A stretch of 32,000 nt of DNA, taken from Gracilimonas sediminicola (GTDB lineage: Bacteria > Bacteroidota > Rhodothermia > Balneolales > Balneolaceae). The notes beneath the pieces are model-generated. The model was not told where the DNA came from, did not search any database, and was given only the letters and a program-made list of their open reading frames with translations. The stretch lies in the NCBI RefSeq assembly GCF_024320785.1, contig NZ_JANDBC010000001.1, forward strand, positions 737,309 through 769,308. The letters are read 5' to 3'. Position numbers and translations under genes: made by a program. Shown here piece by piece: positions 2,922 to 23,914 of the stretch (positions within the stretch are counted from its first letter, which is position 1; each line of letters starts with the position of its first letter).

Positions 2922-4067
2922 ATGAAAAGGACAGTATCCATTATAGCAGCAGCATTATTTTTAATGCCTGCCATCACATATGCACAGGTTGCCATTACAG
3001 CGGTGCCCTTTCTACAAATTGAACCGGATTCACGCGGTGCCGGTATGGGTAACACCGGAGTAGCTATTGCAGACAATGCATCTGCGCTATTTTGGAATCC
3101 CGCCGGTTTAGCCTTTCAAAAAGGTAATAACCAGGCCAGTATCACCCACTCGAACTGGTTGGCCAACTTTAACGTGAGTGACCTTTTCTACGATTACGTG
3201 GTAGGCAAATATTACGTTGAAGGCATTGGCACCTTCGGTGCTCACTTAACTTACCTGAACCTGGGAGAGCAAGTGGAAACGGATGAAACAAGTCCGGAGC
3301 CGATCTCCCGATTCCAGAGCTATGAAGTGGCGCTCGGTGGATCTTATGGATACCAGGTGAGTAAAAACTTTGGGGTTGGAACCAGTCTTCGCCTTATTTA
3401 CTCCAGTTTAGCCAGCGGTACTTCCATCGCAGCCCAGAAAGTAAATCCGGGAAGTAGTGTGGCTGTAGACCTTTCCTTCTTATATAAGACGGACACGTTC
3501 TCGCTTGGAGGAAGAGATGCACGTTTTAGCTTTGGATCAAACCTATCAAACCTCGGGCCCGGCATCCAGTACACCGACAACGCCCAGAAAGACCCCCTGC
3601 CAACTGTACTGCGCTTCGGGTGGTCGTTCGATCTTGATCTGGATGATGAAGGCATTAACCGCATCACCGTTGCCAACGATATTTCCAAAATCATGGCCCG
3701 TACCGATAAGTTTGAAGTGCAAAGCGGTGACTCAACCGTTATCGAAACCAAAGCTGTAGGTCCCATTGAAGCCCTTTACAAGTCATGGAGCAGCTTCGAG
3801 CGTTTTGACGGACAGAATACTGTCGAGGTTGGGCTGATGCAGCAGTTTATGATTGGAGCCGGTATTGAATACTGGTATGCGGATCAATTCGCTCTGCGTG
3901 GCGGTTATTATTTCGAAGATCCCCAAAACGGTGATCGTGAATACATTACTTTTGGCGCCGGTATCCGCTATAGTTTTCTGGGTGTTGACTTCAGTTATAT
4001 AAAAACGCTTGAAGAAGATCACCCACTTGCCAACACCCTGCGATTCAGTTTGCTTATTGACTTTTAA
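2922..4067 (+). CDS. porV: T9SS outer-membrane shuttle/channel protein PorV (LptO)
   Basis: 381 aa with a signal peptide (MKRTVSIIAAALFLMPAITYAQ). It carries the hallmark N-terminal PorV motif VPFLQIEPDSRGAGMGNTGVAIADNASALFWNPAGLAF. The rest shows a beta-barrel-like alternating pattern ending in F (RFSLLIDF). It lies directly downstream of porU. Confidence 0.9.
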   Translation: MKRTVSIIAAALFLMPAITYAQVAITAVPFLQIEPDSRGAGMGNTGVAIADNASALFWNPAGLAFQKGNNQASITHSNWLANFNVSDLFYDYVVGKYYVEGIGTFGAHLTYLNLGEQVETDETSPEPISRFQSYEVALGGSYGYQVSKNFGVGTSLRLIYSSLASGTSIAAQKVNPGSSVAVDLSFLYKTDTFSLGGRDARFSFGSNLSNLGPGIQYTDNAQKDPLPTVLRFGWSFDLDLDDEGINRITVANDISKIMARTDKFEVQSGDSTVIETKAVGPIEALYKSWSSFERFDGQNTVEVGLMQQFMIGAGIEYWYADQFALRGGYYFEDPQNGDREYITFGAGIRYSFLGVDFSYIKTLEEDHPLANTLRFSLLIDF

Positions 4068-4070
4068 TAC

Positions 4071-7000
4071 ATGCAGCATTTGAAGTTTTTCATGAGGAGC
4101 ATGTTAGTTTTTAGCATGCTCTTTCTATTTTGGAACCGCCACACCCACGCTCAACAGATTCCCGTTAAGCGTTCTCACGCTATTTCCAAGCCCCAACCGG
4201 TAATGAGTGAGAACCTGAACGCGACCGGAACGCTTAATGTGGTTGCCATTATGGTTGAATTTCAACCGGACAGTAATCGTCTGACTTCCGGAACCGGGAT
4301 TTTTGGCCCCGATGGCATGGACGGACTTCCTTATTTGGCTAATGCTGAAGACTTCCGGATTGAACCCCTTCCGCACAACCGAAGTTATTTTGAAGCTCAC
4401 CTTGAGTTTGCTAAGAACTATTATGAGCAATCCTCCGATGGTCAGTTAACTATCGATTATCAGGTACTTCCGACTATTTATCAGCTCCCGAAAAAAATGG
4501 AGGAATACTCCCCAACCGGAGAAACCTTTACGAACGAAAAAGTAGCCGAGCTTGCCCGCGATGCCTGGCAAGAAGTTGAAAATGGTCCAAATTTTGATGC
4601 TTCCGGACTGGATCCTGAAACCACTGCTTTTGTCATATTCCATGCCGGGGTTGGGCGCGATATTGAGCTAACGGGCACTAATCTAGACATAACCCCTTTT
4701 GACATCCCTTCCCTTTACCTTCGAAAAGAAAATCTTGGGCAGCTTCTAAATGATCCTTCTTTTAACGGATTTACTGTAAATGATGGCTCGTTTCGTGTCA
4801 CAAACTCCATGATTCTCCCAAGAACAGAAACACGCCGCGGGCTTGATATTCAGGATAATGAATTCGCTTTTCCCCTTTCCATAAATGGGCTTTTGTGTGC
4901 ATCTATTGGAAGTCACCTTGGCTTACCGGATTTATTCAACACTGAAACCGGAGACCCCGCAATTGGCCGCTTTGGATTGATGGATGGAGCCGGATTCTTT
5001 TCCTACAATGGACTGCTTCCTCCCGAACCTTCTGCCTGGGAAAAAATGTATTTAGGATGGGAAACCCCTTTTGAAATTGATGTGAACCAAGCGGGTGATA
5101 TTCAGCTTCCGGCAAATTCCCTCGATCAACCTAATGCCATTGCAAAATACAAGCTCTCCGATTCCGAGTATTTCCTGATTGAAAACAGGCACAGAGATCC
5201 CGATGGAACCGGAATTACGCTGACTATCCGACAACCCGATGGCAATGAAGTTCAGCAAACCTTTACCAATCAGGATGAAGCCTTTGTATTTCAGCAGTCA
5301 GAGTTCGACACTCTTCTGCAGGCCGGAACTTTTGTGAATGCCTCAAATTTTGATTTCAGCCTTCCGGGCGGACTGGATGTCGGAGAAAATGAAAACGACC
5401 CGTCTGATGACAGAGAACTTAATGGCGGGATTCTGATCTGGCATATTGACGAGGCCATGATCAACCTGCAGCTACAAAATGAGCGTGTAAATGCAGACCC
5501 TGCACGGCGTGGCGTGGATTTGGAAGAGGCCGATGGTGCCCAGGATATAGGTCCCGGAGTACCCGGAGCACTGGATAACAGCGCCGCTTTTGGATCCGCT
5601 TTTGACTTTTGGTGGAGTGGCAACGACTACCGCGTGATTTTGCAATCGGGACAGGAGCTCAGCTTCTATCAAAACAGGTTCAGCTCCGACACCCGCCCGG
5701 ATAACAAAAGCAATTCGGGGGCTCCCTCCTTTTTTGAGCTGTACGATTTTTCCGATAATCTCCCCACAGCTTCGTTTAAAATCCGCCCAGACGAACCCAA
5801 TTCCGATTTATATACCTCGGACTTTACGGTACAGCTGGATTCCTCCCAAAGCTATTTCACCGGCGATGATCCCTACTTCAATTACTTTCCGCTTTCCCTG
5901 TCTGTTTATGAAACCGCAACCGACACTTTTTTGATTGTTCCTTCTCAGCAATCGGTGACTGCTCTTTCTACTTCTGATCCTGAGAACATGCAGTTTCAGC
6001 TTTCTGATGCCCCTGTTCAGCAGCCATTTATTGGAACTGAATTGGTATTGGGGGGAAAGCCCGAAGCAGGCACTCCTGATATTACGATCGCTTCCGTTTC
6101 ATGGAACTCAAATACCCAACAATTTGACACCAGCTGGACAGCTACGCTCCCGGCCAACCGTGGCTTTCTGAGCTCTCAAACCGGCGAAACTATTTTAGCT
6201 GATTTTACTGATGCGGGATTGACGGCCGATAACGGTAACCCTACCTCAGAAGGGATTCCTCCTTTTCAACGCTCTGAAGTTATCAGTGGTGAGTTTTCCG
6301 AAGCGTATGATTCCGGCGTTTCATTCTCATCCTTAAGCGGGTATGCTTATACACCTGTATCTGATCAAAACCGGCTCTATACAGGCGCAATCATGCTTGG
6401 TAACCGGGTCATGTTCTATGTTTTTGAAGATAACCGGTTTGTATTGGTTGATCCTGAATCCGACCAAAGAGAGCTCCCTGTTTTTGAAGAAACAGCCGCT
6501 GAATGGCCGGCAATCCTTGACGATGCCACTACCCTTCGGGTTGATAAAACCAATAATCAGCTCATTGCAAATAACCGGCTTGGATCTACAGAGGATTATT
6601 ATCCCGTAGATGCACCGGACGGTGTGCAGTTTATTGGTACTCCACTATACACCGACCTGATAGCATCCGGTTCGGAATATGCAACATTGGTCGTCGGTCA
6701 GGATAGTCTGTCCCAAAACATTTTTGCTTACAACAATCAAGGACAGCTGATTGATGGCTTCCCGCTTTATGTTGGTAAGGCAGTGACCTCTATGACTCAG
6801 CCTATTCACCCGATTATTTACAGAGGAAACTTATATGCCGTCAGTCATGACGGAACGGTGAAATCATGGAATCTGACTCAGGTTACCGATACCAAATGGG
6901 CAACCCGATATGGGGAGGCCCCATTCAATAAGGTATCAGCCCGTGTTCAACCTTCGGAAAATGAAACTCCTTCCGGTTTTGGTGTTCTGAATGAAACAGA

Positions 7001-14270: not shown

Positions 14271-14304
14271 CTGAATTACTCAGTTGCAAAGAGACAGAGT
14301 AAGC

Positions 14305-14655
14305 ATGGTTAAAACTCATCGGGATTTACAGATTTGGCAAAAAGCTATGCAGCTTGTAACTAAAGTTTATCAAGCTGTGGATGATTTTCCGGGCTTTGAA
14401 AAATTTGGGCTTATATCCCAGATTCGACGGAGCTCGGTTTCGGTTCCGGCCAACATTGCAGAAGGTTTTGGCAGAAGATCAAAGAAAGATTTTCGAAGAT
14501 TCTTGAATATCAGCATGGGTTCACTATTCGAATTGCAAACTGAATTAGAGGTATCATTTAACCTTGGGTTTTTAGAAGAAGAACTGTTTAAGGAGCTTTA
14601 CTCCGATACAAGAGAAATTGAGCGAATGATGAGCAGTTTCATCTCCACCCTATGA
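14305..14655 (+). CDS. Four-helix-bundle protein (23S rRNA intervening-sequence protein family)
   Basis: The sequence HRDLQIWQKAMQLVTKVYQAVDDFPGFEKFGLISQIRRSSVSVPANIAEGFGRRSKKDFRRFLNISMGSLFELQTELEVS is the characteristic family pattern (L.vWqka..l...iy......P..E.f.l..QirRaa.SI..NIAEG..R.s..d...fl.iA.GSl.El.t.l). I prefer ATG 14305 to the track's TTG 14284. Confidence 0.85.
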   Translation: MVKTHRDLQIWQKAMQLVTKVYQAVDDFPGFEKFGLISQIRRSSVSVPANIAEGFGRRSKKDFRRFLNISMGSLFELQTELEVSFNLGFLEEELFKELYSDTREIERMMSSFISTL

Positions 14656-14681: not shown

Positions 14682-15527
14682 TTGTCACACTTAACAACAC
14701 AAAACGACAACTCATTGTCACAAACAGAACAAACCTACGCTGCCACTTTGTATGAGGGCACATTTTCCGTTGGATTAGATAAGAAATTTGTCCGAATTGA
14801 GCGGGATGACCCTCCTGCGAAAGGAGCTTTGAAGCTATCCCTTAATCCGTTACTCATTCATACCCCGGAGCGGAATTACCTGTTTGATTGCGGAATTGGG
14901 GAGTTCGGTGAAGATACCGGACCGGAAACCATTCGGCAGAATTTGAACGACCACGGACTTACTGAATTTGATATCACCGATATCTTTTTGAGTCACCTGC
15001 ACTACGACCATATTGGCGGCTTAGCTCATCGTGAGAATGGCTATTGGGAACTTACGTTTCCGGATGCCAATCTTTGGGTTTCCAAAAAAGGCTGGGAAAA
15101 GATGATGGCTAAAGATGAGTACTATGATGAAGAGAAAACGGAGTTTGTCTCCTTTATCGATGCCAAAGCCGACCTCCATTTTCTGGACGAGGAAGATCAG
15201 CCCTATCCTGAATTGAAAGTCCGGAAGATTGGCGGACATACTGAGTTTCATCAAGTATTGCTTTTTGACGATGGCGAGCATAAATACCTGCAAGCCGGTG
15301 ATGTTATTGGAACCAAAGGAGCCATCAACCGAAAGTACGCAGCCAAGTATGACTTTGAACCCAAAGTGAGCCAGCAGAAGCGTGAAGAATTGGCCAAACT
15401 GGCATTTGATGAAGGATATACTATTTTAGCCTACCATGAAGATCAGAACCCTTTGTTTAAACTGACTGATTACAATGAGAAAACCGGGTACAGCACCGAA
15501 AACATCGAGTCTTATGTCCCTGCCTGA
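14682..15527 (+). CDS. MBL-fold metallo-hydrolase
   Basis: The HxHxDH motif is present (LSHLHYDHIGGL), with a downstream GGHTEFH. The start is uncertain: TTG 14682 lies inside a short repeat, and an alternative in-frame TTG sits near 14748. Confidence 0.8.
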   Translation: MSHLTTQNDNSLSQTEQTYAATLYEGTFSVGLDKKFVRIERDDPPAKGALKLSLNPLLIHTPERNYLFDCGIGEFGEDTGPETIRQNLNDHGLTEFDITDIFLSHLHYDHIGGLAHRENGYWELTFPDANLWVSKKGWEKMMAKDEYYDEEKTEFVSFIDAKADLHFLDEEDQPYPELKVRKIGGHTEFHQVLLFDDGEHKYLQAGDVIGTKGAINRKYAAKYDFEPKVSQQKREELAKLAFDEGYTILAYHEDQNPLFKLTDYNEKTGYSTENIESYVPA

Positions 15528-16305
15528 TTACATCACTGACATCAAAAACTTCCTCACCGATAATGACTTCCCTGAGCAAATAGACTCAGCCGTCATTCTC
15601 GGCTCGGGACTGGGTACATTTGGGGATCACATTCAGGATGCACTTTCTATTGAATATTCTGAGATTCCTGATTTCCCCCAATCTACCGTAGTCGGTCATT
15701 CCGGGTCGCTGATTTGTGGGGTAGTGGAAGGCAAAACCGTACTGGCCTTTTCCGGTCGTTTTCATCATTACGAAGGGCATGCTTTTGCCAAAACCGTACT
15801 TCCGGTGCAATTGGCTAAAGCTTTTGATGTGGACAAACTCATTATCTCAAATGCGGCTGGTGGTATTAACCTGCGTTATCGTGTTGGAGATTTAATGATC
15901 ATCGACAGCATCATCAAGCAGTATATGATGGTCTCTGAACCGGCTGTAAATACCTGGAGCTCAAAGTTTGAAAAGTATGCCCGCGAAGTAAAAGCTATTG
16001 CCCGCGACCTGAATATTGAAACCCAAACGGGAACTTATCTTTACGTGAAAGGGCCAAACTACGAGAGCAAAGCTGAAATAAGGGCCTTCCGCAAAATGGG
16101 CGGTGATGCGGTTGGGATGAGTACGGCCCCGGAATTAATTGAAGCTGCCAAACTGGGAGTTAAAACGGCCGCTGTTTCGCTGATCACTAATGCGGCTGCC
16201 GGAGTCACGGACCAGAAACTGGATCATGCAGAAGTAAAGGAAGCGGCAGATCAGAAAAAAGGAGTGTTTGCTAAGTTAGTGAAGGGATTGATTAAAGAAT
16301 TTTAG
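15514..16305 (+). CDS. Purine nucleoside phosphorylase (PNP/MTAP family, PunA-type)
   Basis: Matching motifs are ILGSGLG, GHSGSLICG, GRFHHYEGH, ISNAAGGIN, GPNYESKAEIRAFRKMGGDAVGMSTAPE and SLITNAAAG. I prefer ATG 15514 (MSLPDYI...), which overlaps the MBL gene end by 14 nt, to the track's 15475. Confidence 0.9.
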   Translation: MSLPDYITDIKNFLTDNDFPEQIDSAVILGSGLGTFGDHIQDALSIEYSEIPDFPQSTVVGHSGSLICGVVEGKTVLAFSGRFHHYEGHAFAKTVLPVQLAKAFDVDKLIISNAAGGINLRYRVGDLMIIDSIIKQYMMVSEPAVNTWSSKFEKYAREVKAIARDLNIETQTGTYLYVKGPNYESKAEIRAFRKMGGDAVGMSTAPELIEAAKLGVKTAAVSLITNAAAGVTDQKLDHAEVKEAADQKKGVFAKLVKGLIKEF

Positions 16306-16309
16306 TTGT

Positions 16310-16341
16310 AGCTGTCAGCATTCAGTTTTCAGCTGTCAGCT
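16310..16341. terminator. Hairpin between convergent genes (possible bidirectional terminator)
   Basis: AGCTGTCAGC occurs at 16310-16319 and again at 16331-16340. With the following T, the two copies pair as a 10-bp stem with one central T:T mismatch and a 12-nt loop. The hairpin sits between the PNP stop (16305) and the convergent lipoprotein stop (16374). Confidence 0.45.
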
Positions 16342-16373
16342 TCTCTCACTTTTTAAATTCCATATATATCATT

Positions 16374-17243
16374 TCACTCAAACTCATTGCAGCCGGGCTG
16401 GTAGTATTCCTCGTTGAAATCGGGATAAGAAGCGGTTAGTTCTTCATCGTCCCAGATCGAGGCCTTGGCCAATTCCCGGTTCTCATCTACGAATAGGGCC
16501 TGCCCGGTGCTGTCAACCCAACTACTTGAGGTTTGGACAAAAAGACACGGGTCAGAAAAATTATCTGTTCGGTCGATTTCACTCACACCATAGGAAGCAT
16601 GTACTAAATAAAACTTCTCCGAACAGAACTCCTCACACGCACTCACCAATAACCGGTCAGCATCAATCCAGGCTACCCCGTCAAAATCATTACCGGGTAC
16701 ATCAAAAGTATTTTGTGGCATCCACTGTCCATTTTCTTCTTCCCAAAAAGCAATATCAATGGTACAATCCGAGCGGGTTTCAAGCACAGCCAGCATACTT
16801 CCATCAAAAGAGGGAATTACATTGATTGACTGAAAATTTCCAATTTTATCTCCGCAAATCCCCGAATCATTAGGCGAAAACGTGAGTAGCAATTCACCGG
16901 TTTCGGCATTTGTCAGGTGGTATTCTTCGGAAAAACTTCCAGAGATCAGGTACCCGGCCTCTTTCATGTAAAACAGGTCTTCTGCATTGCCTTCCAACAC
17001 CTCAGAAACTTCGAAGTTGCCGGTTAATTCTGTATCCGTCAGGTAAACAGAGTATTCCTCATTCTTCACATCGCCGCCGTCAGGATAATTTCTCCTGTAG
17101 TCATACTTATTCAGTATATAAGCTATTTCAGAGCTGTCATCACTCCAAACAGGCGCAGCTATTCTTTCTTTGTTTTTCCATTTCGCACAAGAACCCAGCA
17201 GAATGGCTATCAAAACAACGATCAACAGAGATGGATTTTTCAT
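16374..17243 (-). CDS. Hypothetical lipoprotein with PD40/TolB-like repeat patterns
   Basis: It has a lipobox signal (MKNPSLLIVVLIAILLGSC). PD40-like stretches are WSDDSSEIAYIL and PSFDGSMLAVLE. Several Cys residues are present. I recognise no family with certainty. Confidence 0.7.
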   Translation of the reverse strand: MKNPSLLIVVLIAILLGSCAKWKNKERIAAPVWSDDSSEIAYILNKYDYRRNYPDGGDVKNEEYSVYLTDTELTGNFEVSEVLEGNAEDLFYMKEAGYLISGSFSEEYHLTNAETGELLLTFSPNDSGICGDKIGNFQSINVIPSFDGSMLAVLETRSDCTIDIAFWEEENGQWMPQNTFDVPGNDFDGVAWIDADRLLVSACEEFCSEKFYLVHASYGVSEIDRTDNFSDPCLFVQTSSSWVDSTGQALFVDENRELAKASIWDDEELTASYPDFNEEYYQPGCNEFE

Positions 17244-17408
17244 GGCAATGCACCCACAATGATTATTTCCCGCAGGTAAGCGGACATCCGTTATAAGCTA
17301 TCCATGCTAATGTAGCTCAAAATATTTTTATTTGGAAAAGGGAAAGTATTTGGCTGATTGCGGTCCAACCAACGGTTCAGAAAAAGAGACAACTCAAATA
17401 ACCAACAA

Positions 17409-18260
17409 CTAATTATCATAGATTACAATCTGAGCAAAATCTTCCGTCCATTGATCTCTTTCCAAATCCATTAACCACTTGTTTAAGGTGATCCAGTTAT
17501 TTTTGTAGCTAAGCTCTTCAGCTAATTTTTCAAACTCATATTTCTCTTTGGTAGCAACGGCAAAAATGAGCTCCGAATAGACCTCCTGATTTCCCTCTGT
17601 TTGAGCCGTAAAGTCTATAATCCGACGTTCTTTTTCGTTGGGGATGAGGCGAAGCTCATCACTTTTAACATAATTCTCCTGCAGGTAAGCATTGGGAAAA
17701 AACATAGCCACACTGTTGTCTTCTTTGATAGAAAATAGTGTGATATATGCATCCTTGGTAGTGGTAACTTCAAATTCAATGGGTTCTCCAACGGTATAGG
17801 CCTTTTTGTTGCTCGATATATCTACCTTGAAATACTGATCGTAGTCTTTATCCAGTTTCTGAACCTTACAGGTGTAGGTTATACCAACCATATTCCCTTC
17901 TACATAATATTCAGGCGTATTCTCCCCCACAATTCTCCCCTCTACGTTAATTCGCATCAGTCGCCGAAAGGTTTGAAAATAGGCAGCATCATTTTCTTCA
18001 ATACTTTCTGTTTCCGCCTGGGCATCAAACGATTTAATATTCAAGCCTGTAACTCTTTGAACGGCTTCTACCCGTGCATCTCTTAATAGTTCCTCTTTCA
18101 CCTGATCTAAAGACCGATCCGATTCCTGCATTAGTTCCAGGTTTACGGTTACCGATTGTGGTTTCTCCTGCCCCAAACACTCGCCGGTAAAAACCATCAG
18201 AAGAATGGTAATGACCAAACGCCCCGTTTCCATCAACCCTTTTGTTTCGAATATTTTCAT
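17409..18260 (-). CDS. Secreted DUF4384 domain-containing protein with an LPP20/FlgT-like N-terminal half (weak)
   Basis: It has a signal peptide (an alternative start at M10 would be nt 18233). The C-terminal half AYTVGEPIEFEVTTTKDAYITLFSIKEDNSVAMFFPNAYL fits the DUF4384 pattern (Y..GE.i.f.v....d.Y...f.i..dg.v..lFPN) as I recall it; this region is about nt 17541-17831. Confidence 0.7.
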   Translation of the reverse strand: MKIFETKGLMETGRLVITILLMVFTGECLGQEKPQSVTVNLELMQESDRSLDQVKEELLRDARVEAVQRVTGLNIKSFDAQAETESIEENDAAYFQTFRRLMRINVEGRIVGENTPEYYVEGNMVGITYTCKVQKLDKDYDQYFKVDISSNKKAYTVGEPIEFEVTTTKDAYITLFSIKEDNSVAMFFPNAYLQENYVKSDELRLIPNEKERRIIDFTAQTEGNQEVYSELIFAVATKEKYEFEKLAEELSYKNNWITLNKWLMDLERDQWTEDFAQIVIYDN

Positions 18261-18381
18261 ACTGCCGTCTTTTTTTGCCGAAAATATAAATCAACTGAAC
18301 ATAAGTTCATTATTTTTTTTGCAAATAATCCCCTAATTATATTAATTCAGCTAAATCTAAACACAATTTTCGGGGGTACTT
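18261..18381. promoter_or_regulatory. AT-rich divergent intergenic region, presumed to hold promoters for the DUF4384 gene (-) and the lipoprotein/caspase operon (+)
   Basis: This 121-bp gap lies between divergent start codons and is very AT-rich, including T9 and A/T runs. Only near-matches to TAnnTTTG are present (TATATTTT on the minus strand). A G-rich SD-like GGGGGT sits 5 nt upstream of ATG 18382. Confidence 0.3.
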
Positions 18382-18756
18382 ATGAAAAGAAATATAATTT
18401 TCATCATGCTTTTCTCTTTTTTATTGGCTGCCTGCACTCAAAGGACCTATATAAGAAAGAATCAATCTCATTTTGACTATCCTAACAGCAATGTTACACC
18501 AATAGGAAGCTCAAAAGTATTGGGGACTTCTAAAACAGGTCTTTCAATGAAGCCGCCAACCATCACTTCGACTATCGAAGCACAAGCTTATCAGGATGCT
18601 CTCAACAAAGTTAGCGGAGCTGATATGTTAATTAATATTGATTACAACTGGAAAGTCACAGTAATACCAGTTTACGTATTGACATTATATACCGGAAAAC
18701 TGACTGTCGAAGGATACCCGGTAACCATGGAAGTAGGCGAACAAGAATTAAATTAA
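18382..18756 (+). CDS. Small lipoprotein, paralogue 1 of a tandem pair (family not recognised)
   Basis: 124 aa with a lipobox (FSFLLAAC). It shares the blocks SH..YPNSNV.P.G, AL.K..GAD, IP...LT and the C-terminal EVGEQEL with the next gene. Confidence 0.75.
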   Translation: MKRNIIFIMLFSFLLAACTQRTYIRKNQSHFDYPNSNVTPIGSSKVLGTSKTGLSMKPPTITSTIEAQAYQDALNKVSGADMLINIDYNWKVTVIPVYVLTLYTGKLTVEGYPVTMEVGEQELN

Positions 18757-18768
18757 TCGAGGTACATC

Positions 18769-19212
18769 ATGAATAAGTTTAAATCACTAATTACAGTTTT
18801 TGCATGTGCACTTCTATTAGTTGGTTGTAGCACTAAATATGGGCAGAGAGTTGTAAGCAGCCATTATGTTTATCCTAATAGTAATGTTGTACCACTGGGG
18901 TATACAACAGCTGAAGTATCCAGAGTAGGTATACTTTTCCCCAAACAAGCTAATAAAGAAGTTTATGAAGAACTCTTTAATCAAGCTTTATCCAAGCACC
19001 AAGGTGCAGATATCATTGTAGATATGGGCCTTGACGTAACTTATACACAAATTCCCATTCCTATTCTTACTATCTGGATTACAAAAATGAACCTTACCGG
19101 AACTGCAGCGTCGGTTGAAGTTGGTGAGCAAGAGTTATCTCAAATAAGAAACCAAAACTTCGAAGAAGTGGTTGATAAATTTCACTCCTTAGACATTACG
19201 AAAATAAGGTGA
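18769..19212 (+). CDS. Small lipoprotein, paralogue 2 of the tandem pair, with a 23-aa C-terminal extension
   Basis: 147 aa with a lipobox (ALLLVGC). It is collinear with paralogue 1 over the whole mature region. An SD-like GAGGT lies upstream. Its stop overlaps the caspase gene start (GTGA). Confidence 0.75.
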   Translation: MNKFKSLITVFACALLLVGCSTKYGQRVVSSHYVYPNSNVVPLGYTTAEVSRVGILFPKQANKEVYEELFNQALSKHQGADIIVDMGLDVTYTQIPIPILTIWITKMNLTGTAASVEVGEQELSQIRNQNFEEVVDKFHSLDITKIR

Positions 19213-20462
19213 GCACGAATAAACCACTAAATATTTCACTATTACTTTTTACAGTACTGGTATTTTCTGCATGTAGTTCGGTAGGAGTATTAAGCTCTGA
19301 AAACGAGTATCTGCCAAAAGCTTCAGATGATGCCAGTATTGTTTTTCAACTGAATTCCAATGTACCTAGAACAACCTTCTATGTAGATGGAAAAGAAGTT
19401 GTAACGGCAGAAAGAGCAAAAATCTTAGTTAATGGTAATGCTCATACCATTACCGCATCTCCTGAGGGATATAGATCAAAAGAAGAGTACTTACAACCTC
19501 CTTACGATAAGACCAATTATCTGCGGTTTACTTTTATGATTGGCGACAAATTGAATACTGATGATGATACTTCAGATCCAATACTGGCCGATCGACAAAG
19601 GAAGCCAGATCAAGCGGCAGTTGAAAAACAGACCCCGGTAGATATTGAATTCGATATCCCAAAAGCCAATAAAATTAATACTGATGCGGTTGGTGTCATC
19701 ATCGGTAATAAGGATTACTCAAAAGACATCCCGAATGTTGATTATGCCGTGAATGATGCAGCTCTTGTAAAAGAATACTTTATAAACACCCTGGGGATCA
19801 AACCCGGAAATATTATTTATGAAGAGAATGCCGGTAAAGCTACTTTTGATGCTATTTTTGGAAATGAAAACAACCATATGGGAAAACTTCACAACTTCGT
19901 GAAACCGGGAAAAAGTGATGTTTATATTTTCTACTCTGGGCATGGTTCCCCCGACGTGAATTCTAACTCGGCTTACATGATGCCTATTGACTCTGACCCC
20001 GCCTTTGTATCCTTCTCAGGCTACAGCACCGACCTTTTGTACGGCAACCTTTCCAAACTGAACGCCAAATCAGTAGCCGTTTTTCTGGATGCCTGCTTTT
20101 CCGGAGCATCCGGTTCCGGTGAAATGCTGATTAAGAATGCCTCTCCCATAGGCATTAAAGTAAAGAACAAAGCTTTAACCATCGATAACAGCCTTATCAT
20201 CACTGCCAGCAGTGGAGAGCAAATTGCCAGCTGGTATCCTCATATGAGACACGGACTCTTTACCTATTTTTTATTGAAGGGATTTAAAGGCGAAGCGGAT
20301 CTTGATAATGATGGAATCTTAACTAAATCAGAGCTTCAAAATTATTTGACCGATCAGGATGATGGAATACCCTACTTCGCAAGGCGACTACACAACCGTA
20401 TCCAAACGCCCGAAATTATTTCCAATGAATACGAAGAAACACTGATAAAGTATAAGAATTAA
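19209..20462 (+). CDS. Caspase-family (peptidase C14) lipoprotein with an N-terminal PEGA-like domain and a C-terminal EF-hand-like loop
   Basis: GTG start. Lipobox is LVFSAC. The PEGA-like segment is TFYVDGKEVV...GNAHTITASPEGYRSKEEY. The caspase dyad is FYSGHG (His codon 19941-19943) and FLDACFSG (Cys codon 20094-20096). DLDNDGILTKSE (20298-20333) fits the canonical 12-residue EF-hand loop. Confidence 0.85.
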   Translation: MSTNKPLNISLLLFTVLVFSACSSVGVLSSENEYLPKASDDASIVFQLNSNVPRTTFYVDGKEVVTAERAKILVNGNAHTITASPEGYRSKEEYLQPPYDKTNYLRFTFMIGDKLNTDDDTSDPILADRQRKPDQAAVEKQTPVDIEFDIPKANKINTDAVGVIIGNKDYSKDIPNVDYAVNDAALVKEYFINTLGIKPGNIIYEENAGKATFDAIFGNENNHMGKLHNFVKPGKSDVYIFYSGHGSPDVNSNSAYMMPIDSDPAFVSFSGYSTDLLYGNLSKLNAKSVAVFLDACFSGASGSGEMLIKNASPIGIKVKNKALTIDNSLIITASSGEQIASWYPHMRHGLFTYFLLKGFKGEADLDNDGILTKSELQNYLTDQDDGIPYFARRLHNRIQTPEIISNEYEETLIKYKN

Positions 20463-20511
20463 TTTTAGTGCTTGCTCAGTGTGTATCATAGCCTTTGCCT
20501 AATAGGACCTG

Positions 20512-20539
20512 CTGTTCCCAACCTAGTGGTTGGGAACAG
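20512..20539. terminator. Perfect 12-bp stem / 4-nt loop hairpin between convergent genes
   Basis: The sequence is CTGTTCCCAACC-tagt-GGTTGGGAACAG. It lies between the caspase gene stop (20462) and the carboxyltransferase gene stop (20564). There is no U-tract on either side. Confidence 0.55.
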
Positions 20540-20563
20540 TGAGGGCTCAGACGCATCAAAATA

Positions 20564-22114
20564 TTACAGCGGCAGATTGTCGTGCTTTTTCTTCGGCACA
20601 GATTCCACTTTGTTATGGGACACTTCCAGTGCTTTAATCAGTTTCTCACGGGTTTCGGAAGGCAGTATTACATCATCCACATAGCCGCGCTCGGCCGCTT
20701 TATAAGGGTGAGCAAAGTTCTCGCTATACTGATCTTCCAGTTCCTTCTGCTTGGCTTCCGGATCATCGGCTTTGGCTATTTCTTTACGGAAGATGATTTC
20801 CACCGCACCCTTGGTACCCATTACGGCAATCTCGGCTGTTGGCCAGGCTACGTTGTAATCAGCCCTTATGTGCTTGGAGTTCATCACATCGTAAGCTCCA
20901 CCATAGGCCTTACGGGTAATCACGGTCATTTTTGGAACCGTAGCCTCGCAGAATGCATACAGCAGCTTAGCGCCGTGTTTGATGATTCCATTCCACTCCT
21001 GATCGGTACCGGGCAGGAAGCCGGGCACATCTTCAAATACAACCAGCGGAATGTTGAACGCATCGCAGAAACGAACAAAACGAGCTCCTTTCAGAGAAGC
21101 ATCTATATCCAAAACTCCAGCCAGTGAAAGCGGCTGATTGGCAACCACGCCAACACTACGGCCTCCAAGTCGGGCAAAACCGACCACGATGTTATCCGCA
21201 TAGTCTTTGTGAACCTCGAAGAAGGAATCTTTATCCATAATTCCATCAATCACATCATGAATATCATACGGCTTGTTGGGGTTAAGCGGCACCAGGTCTT
21301 CCAGTGCTTTGGCTTTGGCCGAATCCGGTTCTTTGGATTCTACCATCGGTACTTTTTCCTCACAATTCTGAGGCACGTATTTCATCAGCTGCCGGATGTC
21401 ATTCAGACATACCGCATCGTTAGGGCTGGAAAAATGAGAAACCCCGGATTTGGTGCTGTGTGTGGAAGCACCGCCTAATTCTTCGGATGTAACTTCTTCA
21501 TGCGTTACCGTTTTCACCACATTCGGTCCGGTTACAAACATATAGCTGGAATTTTCCACCATAAAAATGAAATCGGTAAGCGCCGGACTGTAAACGGCTC
21601 CACCTGCACAAGGCCCCATCACAGCCGAAATCTGAGGCACAACGCCCGAGGCCATACTGTTTCTCCAGAATACCTCAGCATAACCGCCCAGCGAGGATAC
21701 CCCTTCCTGGATGCGAGCGCCTCCGGAGTCGTTAAGTCCGATGATCGGTACTCCATTCTTCAAGGCCAGATCCATAATCTTGCAAATTTTCTCTGCATGG
21801 GTTTCTGACAGAGAACCGCCAAATACGGTAAAATCCTGACTGAAAATATAAACCGGACGGCCGTGAATTTTAGCGTGGCCGGTTACGACCCCATCCCCTA
21901 ATATCTTTTTCTTATCCAATCCGAAAGCTGTACTCCGGTGGGTCACAAACTTGTCAATTTCCTCGAACGAGCCTTTATCCACCAACAGATCGATTCGCTC
22001 GCGGGCGGTTAGTTTGCCTTTATCATGTTGCTTCTCGATTCGGGCCTCACCTCCGCCTTTAAGTGCTTCTTCCCGCAGTTTCTGTAGTCGTTCTACTTTT
22101 GGATTGGATGCCAT
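20564..22114 (-). CDS. Acyl-CoA carboxylase carboxyltransferase (beta) subunit; propionyl-CoA carboxylase beta / methylmalonyl-CoA carboxyltransferase family
   Basis: 516 aa. Family blocks seen are [122 protein letters not shown] and [13 protein letters not shown]. Confidence 0.92.
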
Positions 22115-22128
22115 AATTAAGGTATTGT

Positions 22129-23787
22129 TTAAGATTTATATTCGTCAAAATAAGATTGAAGCCGGTCGGTAAAATCGATGGCTACTTCAGATGTCATATC
22201 AACTTTATTAGTCGAAAATACTTTTTTTTCAATGAATTCAGTAGCCTCATCCCAATTGTCCAGCTCCTGAATTTTACTCAGGGCTTTTTCGTATTTCTTA
22301 TCTGATCCTTTGAAAATTTTTTCTACAAAAAAGCCTTCATTGTTGATCATAAAGTCCTTCAGTGTGGGCATGGTCTGGTCGTCTTCGTCCTCTTCATCAA
22401 CGAGTTCATCGACCAGCGTTTCCTCATCAATCAGCATCTCGTCACTATCCGAACCCTTACTGCTCATCAACATATCCATTTGGTCGGGACGTATAAACTG
22501 CTGCCACATGGGCTGCTCGTCATTATCTTCGGCTTCTTCCTCAATAACAGATTCATCCGTATCATCTTCCGCAGCTAATTCATCCAGCACATCCTCTTCT
22601 TCTTTTTCAGGCGCCGGTTCTGCAGGCTTCTCTTCTTTTTTGGAAGACTTCTTTTTCTTCTTCTTTTTTGATTTTTTCTTTTCCTCTTCCTCTTCTTCCG
22701 TCAGGTTTTTGAACGAATGTGCTGCCTGATCAAGTACCGTTACGAGGTTCTCCCGAAACTTCTTGATTTCATCGGTTTGATCTCCGGTTTTGAGTGATTC
22801 CGAGATCTTTTCAGCATCGGGCACTTCTTCAAACTCCTCAAAAATGGACTTATCTTTCTGCTCGGTTTTAAAGAGAGCATTGAACGACTCTTCGTCCGTC
22901 ATTTGCGGACCTTCTTCACTGTAATCGCCAAAAAAACTATCCAACAATCGCTGTTCTTTTTCATCAATTTCTTCCATCTCCTCTTCATCAGGATGGTCAA
23001 AGCGATTTTTCTGAGCAATTAACTCCTCCCGGAACTGATCCCGAAATTTCTCCTGAAGCTTCACGTCCAGCAAGTCTGGATAGGAAAGAATTTCAATAAA
23101 ACGCTCTTTGGTAATCTGCTCATTCAGTTCGTTAAAAGCTTTTGCCGTGAGGTACAATCCCTTGTCTTCAAAAAATAGCTGAATGAGTTTGGCATCTACT
23201 TCTCCTCCAAATAGGGTAAACAAAAGCTCAAGGACCTGCGCCCATTCTTTGGCTGTATAGGATGCAACAAGGTTTGCATCCAGGTTATGGATAAGCAGCT
23301 TACACCTTTTCTTCTCCAGTGTTTTCAGCTTCCTTTTTTTCATATACAGCGGAATGGCTTTACCAAAGTGCTTATAAATAGTCAGCTTGTCGGTTCGCCG
23401 AACCAGCTCTTCGTAATCGAGTTCTTCTTCGCCTTTGTAAATATAATCCGCCATGTGATGACGCGGTTCCAGGTACACCTTCACAATCTCGGTCATTACC
23501 CGGCTGGTAACTACGTAAAACTTGTCTTTAGGAATGCGGGAATTTGCAAATAATGCTTGCTGAAATTCTTTCCACGCATCTTTAACCAGCTGCTGATCAG
23601 TGTTCGCCCATTCCGTGTCTTCTAAAACAAATTCTTTCTTCAGCTTTTCGTTGATTTCGATGCGAATTCGTTCAACAATAAAGGAAGGGAACCCCGCTGA
23701 AAGACAGTCTTTCAGGGTATAATAGGGCTTGTCGGATTTAACCGCGCCAATAAGCCGATCGATGATTTCTTCTACTGCCTGATGCAT
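22129..23787 (-). CDS. Hypothetical protein with a helical N-domain, a ~200-aa acidic/poly-Lys low-complexity centre and a small C-domain
   Basis: This long ORF ends 14 nt upstream of the carboxyltransferase gene on the same strand. I prefer ATG 23787 (MHQAVEEII...) to the track's TTG 23838. I recognise no family. Confidence 0.65.
22627..22699. repeat. Near-pure polypyrimidine (+ strand) tract encoding [24 protein letters not shown] on the minus strand
   Basis: Direct reading gives cttctcttcttttttggaagacttctttttcttcttcttttttgattttttcttttcctcttcctcttcttcc. It is low-complexity sequence made of simple A/G codon repeats on the coding strand. Confidence 0.8.
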
Positions 23788-23914
23788 AAGTCGTTTTAGT
23801 ATTTCACTGAAAATAAAGCCTGCCGGCTCGCAATACAATTAAGGATTTAGATATTCCGTTATAGTTTTCAAATTTTATGAACTGAAAGCATATTCTTATT
23901 AGTCACAAACTTGC

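Follow-up and report, generated by a model that had tools for sequence, protein, structure and literature searches.

We analysed a 32,000-nucleotide stretch of the Gracilimonas sediminicola genome (contig NZ_JANDBC010000001.1; hereafter, the window), in which five consecutive open reading frames (ORFs), designated genes A to E, lie between a PNP gene and a carboxyltransferase gene. The original prediction, which was made from the sequence alone, had regarded the five ORFs as one accessory block of exported proteins centred on a caspase-family lipoprotein. Our analysis shows that the segment at approximately positions 17352-20559, with genes B to E, is an accessory four-gene envelope module in G. 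sediminicola, and that gene A is not a member of the module. The features of the locus are listed below (positions in the window; + and - denote the strands; aa, amino acids).

15475-16305, PNP gene, left flank of the five-ORF block
16374-17243, -, gene A, 289 aa, predicted lipoprotein, listed among the five ORFs between the PNP and carboxyltransferase genes
17352-20559 (approximate), variable accessory segment carrying the four-gene module B to E, delimited by the blastn breaks against the related contig L030
17409-18260, -, gene B, 283 aa, predicted to be exported, N-terminal half without an assigned domain followed by DUF4384 (residues ~150-240)
18261-18381, divergent intergenic region between B and C, AT-rich, holding the Shine-Dalgarno (SD)-like GGGGGT before C
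18382-18756, +, gene C, 124 aa, position-1 small lipoprotein (predicted), lipobox Cys18
18478-18507, +, motif YPNSNVTPIG of C, residues 33-42, invariant in the family alignment
18769-19212, +, gene D, 147 aa, position-2 small lipoprotein (predicted), paralogue of C
18871-18900, +, motif YPNSNVVPLG of D, residues 35-44, invariant in the family alignments
19209-20462, +, gene E, 417 aa, predicted lipoprotein with an N-terminal domain (N-domain), a disordered linker, and a caspase-family (Peptidase_C14) domain
19314-19553, +, N-domain of E, residues 36-115, module-specific, predicted to be all-beta and PEGA-like
19695-20354, +, caspase domain of E, residues 163-382, His245 (SGHG) and Cys296 (DACFSG)
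20298-20333, +, EF-hand-like loop of E, DLDNDGILTKSE, residues 364-375, a single DxDxDG...E inside the caspase domain
20512-20539, right hairpin between the convergent E and carboxyltransferase genes, folding energy -28.2 kcal/mol
20564-22114, carboxyltransferase gene, right flank of the block

The presence of five ORFs between the two housekeeping genes was borne out, and the products of A and E match NCBI entries of G. sediminicola at 100% identity. Reading of the translations showed N-terminal hydrophobic segments with lipobox-like ends in A, C, D, and E (LLGSC, LLAAC, LLVGC, and VFSAC, respectively), which are predicted lipoproteins; B has a hydrophobic, signal-like N-terminus, and the products of all five genes are predicted to be exported, as had been proposed. 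Several finer points of the original prediction were also reproduced: the GTG start codon of E overlaps the stop codon of D as GTGA, and SD-like G-rich motifs are located 6-11 nucleotides before C (GGGGGT) and D (GAGGT), with none before the neighbouring genes. The intergenic region between B and C presumably contains divergent promoters, judging from its sequence. The two hairpins that had been taken as the ends of the block are strong when compared with shuffled sequences (z-scores of -3.7 for 16300-16350 and -5.25 for 20500-20550), and their role as boundaries could be kept only in part: the right one lies inside the variable segment, and the left one (16310-16341) lies outside it. The right hairpin is probably a bidirectional terminator without a T-run; L001, a related contig, carries a different hairpin at the same position. 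The left hairpin consists of two copies of the near-palindrome AGCTGTCAGC and, since it is placed between the convergent PNP and A genes, is likely a terminator unrelated to the module.

Accessory segment and its flanks

A sliding-window calculation gave a GC content of 0.35-0.40 over 17.0-20.0 kb versus about 0.46 elsewhere, and confirmed the dip that had been noticed from spot counts of single lines of the sequence. The region 17244-20563 has a GC content of 0.389, and the remaining window has 0.456. The GC content at the third codon positions (GC3) was 0.43 for B, 0.34 for C, 0.26 for D, and 0.37 for E; the corresponding values were 0.45 for A and 0.45-0.50 for the PNP and carboxyltransferase genes. 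The four genes of the module are AT-richer than their surroundings in three other hosts as well. At the Salinibacter ruber locus (L003), the GC content is 0.41-0.53 for the module and 0.56 for the locus, and Transposase_mut fragments (positions 3409-4702 of that locus) are found directly upstream of the module; no other locus showed transposase fragments.

The window was then compared with contigs of its relatives. The window, L001, and L030 stand at similar distances from one another (carboxyltransferases ~98% identical, PNPs 92-94% identical), and L034 is more distant. In L030 and L034, both from relatives within Gracilimonas, the gene order is carboxyltransferase-A-PNP and the module is absent at the same site; the identities to the window are 98.1% (carboxyltransferase) and 94.3% (PNP) for L030, and 95.2% and 81.7% for L034. 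The blastn alignment between L030 and the window stops at about position 17351 and restarts at about 20560, which delimits a 3.2-kb segment. L001, of which the E homologue is 80% identical, has the order PNP-B-C-D-E-carboxyltransferase at the same site without A, and L002 (E homologue 64% identical) has B-C-D-E all on one strand in a different context. Thus, the hint of a foreign origin for 17.3-20.5 kb was upheld insofar as accessory behaviour is concerned: the segment is absent in close relatives, in which the PNP and carboxyltransferase genes flank only A, and it is AT-richer than its flanks. Neither mobility genes, flanking repeats, nor a target-site duplication was seen at the segment junctions when the window was compared with the relatives. 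A phage-borne origin was rejected, as no relatives of the module were present in 2.9 million viral contigs.

The treatment of the block as one five-gene unit did not survive this comparison, because L030 and L034 have A and lack the module, and L001 has the module and lacks A. From these gene orders, A is taken to be a genus-restricted resident gene that was lost in L001, and B to E form a separate variable segment. The PD40-like label given earlier to A has to be withdrawn, as no Pfam match was obtained even at E-values up to 10. Homologues of A form only 15 clusters, without a recorded Pfam domain in any of them, and every named cluster is from Gracilimonas. A paralogue of A (41% identical) is located at another locus of one module-less genome (L032).

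Recurrence of the module and its protein families

Genomic contexts were collected from Salinibacter ruber, Methylobacter marinus, an Elusimicrobiota metagenome-assembled genome (MAG), and Cyclobacteriaceae contigs, together with 21 loci that were retrieved from 185,579 species genomes with the pattern [YF]PNSNVxP[LI]G; the number of retrieved loci is a lower bound. The loci were annotated with hidden Markov models (HMMs) built from our own alignments and with Pfam, and 25 distinct loci remained after the removal of duplicates. They are distributed over about ten phyla, with Balneolota, Salinibacter, Bacteroidota, Elusimicrobiota, Nitrospirota, Methylococcales and other Proteobacteria, Geobacter, Verrucomicrobiota, Planctomycetota, and Nitrospinales as sources. 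The tandem pair of small lipoproteins was found in 23 of the 25 loci. A protein with the N-domain is encoded directly downstream on the same strand in 24 loci (the exception is at a contig edge), and this protein carries Peptidase_C14 with the His/Cys dyad in 21. The co-occurrence of the small lipoproteins with C14 and DUF4384, which had been proposed as a check, was therefore observed in 21/25 and 8/25 loci, respectively. Clustering of all the neighbouring ORFs of the 25 loci yielded no other recurrent gene family near the module. Judged from these comparisons of sequence, the module is conserved and horizontally scattered, and consists of the lipoprotein pair, the N-domain/caspase protein, and an optional DUF4384 protein. 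The idea of an exported caspase module thereby holds for B, C, D, and E, which are co-conserved; it does not hold for A, and the caspase domain is not the constant partner.

The paralogy of C and D suggested by the original prediction was confirmed by BLASTP (31% identity, E = 8e-22). A C/D-type profile retrieved 104 clusters at 90% identity, none of which has a Pfam domain on record, and 405 clusters at 50% identity among 1.84 billion representatives; the small-lipoprotein family is real but rare. The members have approximately 125 aa, and the residues C18, P34, N35, S36, and N37 (numbering of C) are invariant in the family alignment. The P-N-S-N residues are included in [YF]PNSNVxP[LI]G, about 15 residues past the lipobox Cys, and a C-terminal EGTAAKMEVGxQxL is also conserved. 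The AlphaFold2 (AF2) model of C (predicted local distance difference test (pLDDT) score, 85.5) consists of three short strands, one helix, and a long beta hairpin. Foldseek gave no significant match of this fold in the PDB (best E = 0.16), a profile search of the PDB sequences gave no match for the family, and neither C nor D had a Pfam match above the threshold. Several candidate families were tried and rejected, namely DUF6567 (weak matches for 8 of 55 members, best E = 0.007, all under 27 bits), YbjQ_1 (weak matches for 2 of 55 members; hhalign probability against Escherichia coli YbjQ, 10.6%), and LpoB (no match of C or D themselves to the model PF13036). One Salinibacter small lipoprotein carries an LpoB label from its source. 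A likeness of C to colicin lysis proteins (E = 0.013) is confined to the signal peptide and lipobox, and was also rejected.

In a neighbour-joining tree, the lipoproteins of position 1 and position 2 form separate clades across phyla with few exceptions, and from this split the duplication is considered to be old and the gene order fixed. Among the best 150 representatives, no Rosetta-stone fusion of a small lipoprotein to the N-domain or caspase was found; the fusions seen there involve a Q/P-rich linker with a C-terminal domain, GYF_2, or Cys-rich tails. The first type is represented by position-2 lipoproteins (P0256, P0259, P0295, P0364, and positions 7370-8548 of L015) with a Q/P-rich linker and a C-terminal domain of ~200 aa, which has no Pfam match and of which the aromatic-rich terminal strands recall outer-membrane beta-barrels.

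The N-domain HMM matches the gene following the lipoproteins in 24 of the 25 loci irrespective of the C-terminal domain. The original prediction had labelled this region of E as PEGA; E itself has no such Pfam match, and the 5 of 24 N-domains that match do so only at E-values of 0.015 or worse (cut-off, 20.8 bits), and hence the label was dropped. Among 1589 E homologues, only the few that extend over the full length of E possess the N-domain, and their contigs hold small lipoproteins too. Two C14 subfamilies are found behind the N-domain, the DACFSG type, to which the window belongs, and the DACRNNP type of Methylococcaceae and one Roseivirgaceae locus (Pfam E ~1e-40). In a Planctomycetota MAG (L025, 3062-3862), the N-domain is fused to an LpoB domain (E = 8e-21) that replaces the caspase domain, and in a Nitrospinales MAG (L029, 5066-6927), the protein has two N-domains and no caspase domain, with an FGE-sulfatase gene adjacent; each of these loci has one small lipoprotein. 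Methylococcaceae have an extra lipoprotein of ~163 aa that corresponds to the N-domain alone. The constant partner of the small lipoproteins thus appears to be the N-domain of E and not the caspase domain itself.

The caspase assignment of E was confirmed by Pfam (Peptidase_C14, PF00656; 55.2 bits versus a cut-off of 21.4, E = 1e-14). All 59 aligned homologues share H245 and C296, and the dyad is kept in the module caspases of other phyla. The AF2 model of E has a pLDDT of 80.7 overall and of >90 over residues 150-417, and the Foldseek search against the PDB retrieved MALT1 (7.8e-13), followed by Arabidopsis metacaspase-9, Geobacter GSU0716, and caspases. From the invariant dyad and the caspase-like fold of the model, E is predicted to be an active protease. 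NCBIfam gave only a sub-threshold match to "caspase_w_EACC1", and PADLOC only a match of its generic caspase model (E = 2.6e-6). The EF-hand that had been assigned to E was found in part: the canonical DxDxDG...E loop DLDNDGILTKSE is present, but there is only one loop, and EF-hand_1 scored 15.1 bits versus a cut-off of 25.4. The loop (pLDDT ~98) is canonical in 31 of the 59 homologues, and its positions 1, 3, 5, and 12 are conserved in 49-55. The Ca2+ gate that had been suggested earlier found no support and is conjectural, the loop being single, subfamily-wide, and degenerate in many module caspases; from the alignment, the loop looks like a structural trait of the caspase subfamily rather than a specific gate. 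Additional caspase paralogues adjoin the module in L011, L019, L024, and L036.

The co-occurrence of DUF4384 with caspases, which had been stated in the original prediction, is documented in the literature: DUF4384 is an accessory domain of orthocaspases (PMC7475262), and it is the C-terminal domain in some members of Csx30, the substrate of the caspase-like Csx29 (bioRxiv 10.1101/2022.08.17.504292). The DUF4384 assignment of B was likewise confirmed (PF14326; 58.4 bits versus a cut-off of 27, E = 8e-16), and 6 of 6 aligned B-type proteins match. An LPP20-like N-terminal half of B was considered and rejected, since it had no support from Pfam or PDB profiles. B orthologues adjoin the module in L001, L002, L003, L007, and L018, and B-type proteins, composed of a signal sequence, the N-terminal half, and DUF4384, accompany it in Balneolaceae, Salinibacter, and two Bacteroidota lineages. 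With DUF4384 in the flanks of only 8 loci, it is a facultative partner of the module. The Methylobacter neighbour has the architecture Pkinase, transmembrane (TM) segment (289-307), and DUF4384, and in a Verrucomicrobiia MAG (L026, 3491-6452), a DUF4062-TM-DUF4384 protein and a SLATT_1 protein are encoded directly beside the module caspase. DUF4062 and SLATT_1 domains are typical of conflict or abortive-infection systems. The two architectures suggest that DUF4384 resides outside the cytoplasm and is tied to cytoplasmic signalling or effector domains. In two Bacteroidota loci (L007, 878-5472; L018, 9056-13538), a WD40-repeat caspase of 950-970 aa and a B-like DUF4384 protein adjoin the module, and this second gene group is divergent or convergent to the module.

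As for the remaining window, a gene of the 23S rRNA-intervening-sequence family (PF05635, E = 1.6e-40) is located at 14284-14655 (+) between phoH and a metallo-beta-lactamase-fold gene. Its GC content is 0.395; L001, L030, and L034 have no such gene at the corresponding position, so that it represents a second, independent small insertion. The orthologues of the metallo-beta-lactamase-fold gene (14682-15527, +) in the related contigs have a precomputed Pfam match to Anti-Pycsar_Apyc1 (PF23023). Note that the end of this gene overlaps the listed start of the PNP gene by 53 bp, so that one start was probably mis-called. An extremely acidic, low-complexity protein of 569 aa with long E/D/K runs and no Pfam match is encoded at 22129-23838 (-), and its counterparts (550-567 aa) are found beside the carboxyltransferase gene in all the Gracilimonas relatives.

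Proposed function and alternatives

We propose, with a little less than even confidence, that the products of B to E form a periplasmic protease complex tethered to the outer membrane, in which C/D docks the N-domain of E and the DUF4384 protein is the target or receiver. All the parts would be exported, and C, D, and E would be lipid-anchored, most simply to the outer membrane on its periplasmic side. A hetero-oligomeric platform of C and D would bind the N-domain, and the invariant PNSN-containing motif may take part in this binding. The pairing of C and D as a heteromer is suggested by the separate clades of position 1 and position 2 across phyla, and the role of the N-domain as an adaptor by its retention while the effector changes. 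Docking would then tether or regulate the protease domain on its flexible linker, and the DUF4384 protein would be a target of the protease or a receiver. In lineages whose DUF4384 protein continues through the inner membrane into a Ser/Thr kinase or DUF4062 domain, a signal from the envelope could reach the cytoplasm, and Gracilimonas B may represent a soluble or anchored periplasmic version. Candidate outputs are envelope-stress signalling, conflict or defence, and envelope remodelling.

Four observations weigh against this proposal. Several Bacteroidota homologues of E have a plain signal peptide without Cys, and the proposed localisation rests on the lipoboxes. The model of the N-domain, with six beta strands within residues 44-111, has a pLDDT of only 65-80, that is, moderate confidence. 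The 125-aa protein preceding P0008, an N-domain caspase, was missed by the lipoprotein HMM. Finally, no DUF4384 was found within 4-7 kb in 17 of the 25 loci, and DUF4384 therefore cannot be an obligatory substrate. The protein upstream of P0008 (L037, 1862-2239) is without the PNSN motif; a similar helix-then-hairpin sequence pattern is retained, and the protein may thus belong to the family as a divergent branch.

A wider form of the proposal is more speculative, and we regard it as possible rather than probable: the module would be an extracytoplasmic caspase system of a type not recognised before, with a heteromeric lipoprotein platform on the outer membrane and an adaptor-held protease. 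Events at the envelope would be passed on through the regulated cleavage or binding of periplasmic DUF4384 proteins and, in some lineages, would reach kinase, DUF4062, or SLATT effectors on the other side of the inner membrane; the system would have spread horizontally.

Alternatively, C and D might be dedicated inhibitors or chaperones whose release or degradation would be needed before E becomes active in the envelope. Operons that combine a protease with its inhibitor are well established, the pair is tightly linked, co-oriented, and immediately upstream in the 21 caspase loci, and the motif is invariant in both paralogues. However, the lipoproteins of the pair are kept where the caspase domain is replaced by LpoB or missing (L025, L028, and L029) and are kept with two different C14 subfamilies, which indicates the N-domain rather than the active site as the partner; in addition, the fold of C/D has no detectable relation to known inhibitor folds. 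We thus consider an inhibitory or chaperoning role unlikely.

An envelope conflict or defence system of the abortive-infection type, whose caspase would be triggered when the envelope is damaged or a phage attacks, would be in keeping with a module that is seldom found, is scattered patchily over the phyla, has a higher AT content than its hosts, and differs between close relatives, and with its neighbours at individual loci, that is, the transposase fragments in Salinibacter, the DUF4062-DUF4384 and SLATT_1 proteins in the verrucomicrobium, and the WD40-caspase genes in Bacteroidota; the generic PADLOC match of E points in the same direction. Nevertheless, B, C, and D match no PADLOC system model and there are no consistent defence-island neighbours, and hence we judge a dedicated defence function to be rather improbable. 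The absence from the viral contigs is neutral here, and this explanation is compatible with the protease complex proposed above.

A further alternative is that C and D are substrates, with cleavage near PNSN freeing their globular domains from the lipid anchors as signals or effectors. The motif is suitably placed between the anchor and the globular domain, and E weakly resembles the Asn-specific C13 family (E = 0.005). On the other hand, C14 enzymes usually cleave after Arg, Lys, or Asp (P1), no such residue is invariant in the lipoproteins, and we know of no C14 member with Asn specificity; the motif is, moreover, identical across the two divergent C14 subfamilies and the caspase-less variants. 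This alternative is accordingly given little credence. That unrelated exported genes are merely adjacent, with a low GC content due to amino-acid composition, is highly improbable, even though A is indeed unrelated to the remaining genes and exported proteins may be AT-biased here (the 569-aa neighbour has a GC content of 0.418), because the order of C, D, and N-domain/caspase is kept across about ten phyla, GC3, which is largely independent of amino-acid content, is down to 0.26-0.37, and presence or absence is polymorphic in close relatives; for B to E, chance adjacency is considered excluded by these comparisons.

Relation to known systems and significance

The original prediction had stated that no characterised system with this composition was known to its author, and none was found by us in Pfam, NCBIfam, PADLOC, or the literature. 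PADLOC gave no match for A, B, C, or D, and no description of the gene set was found in the literature, including the principal overviews of conflict systems and of caspase homologues in prokaryotes. The enzyme class itself is known; we found no paper that describes the partner set, the two unnamed families, or the extracytoplasmic setting. E is similar to the orthocaspases and bacterial metacaspases (PMC3501461, PMC7475262) in its Peptidase_C14 domain, dyad, and caspase-like fold, and the associations with DUF4384, FGE-sulfatase, and WD40 seen near the module are typical of bacterial caspase homologues. Such homologues were surveyed by Asplund-Samuelsson et al. in 2012 (PMC3501461), and N-terminal signal-like helices have already been noted in surveys. 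Unlike the surveyed homologues, E is a predicted lipoprotein with a dedicated N-domain and is genetically locked to a lipoprotein pair, and no such partner set is reported in the surveys.

The type III-E CRISPR system Craspase is also similar in that a clan-CD caspase-like protease acts with a separate target, which carries DUF4384 in some variants. There, Csx29 cleaves Csx30, which controls RpoE/Csx31, and proteolysis serves as a signalling step. Craspase is, however, cytoplasmic and RNA-guided with a CHAT-type protease, whereas the module is predicted to be exported, has lipoproteins, and is without CRISPR parts. In the NlpI-Prc system of E. coli, a tetratricopeptide repeat lipoprotein adaptor directs a periplasmic serine protease. 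The logic proposed for the module, in which a lipoprotein platform would tether the protease, is alike, but the folds and catalytic class are unrelated and there is no sequence similarity. Staphostatins are cytoplasmic beta-barrels acting on papain-like staphopains, and are comparable to C and D as small co-transcribed proteins beside a cysteine protease gene; C and D differ in being exported lipoproteins with no detectable fold match, which persist without the caspase domain. The likeness of the small lipoproteins to LpoB (PF13036) and YbjQ/DUF6567 is weak and no more than a lead, with all the matches below the family thresholds.

Bacterial caspase homologues are abundant, but hardly any of them has been assigned a substrate, a partner, or a location. 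The module provides a compact, genetically defined partner set, composed of two lipoproteins, an adaptor domain, and a DUF4384 protein, and places a caspase-family enzyme outside the cytoplasm according to the predicted export signals. It defines two families for which no model exists, the PNSN-motif lipoproteins and the N-domain, and suggests a concrete role for DUF4384, namely that caspase-family proteases have it as their receiver or target in the periplasm. The role of exported bacterial caspases thereby becomes testable in a cultured marine bacterium. If the wider form of the proposal holds, a counterpart of caspase signalling or death cascades would exist in the bacterial envelope.

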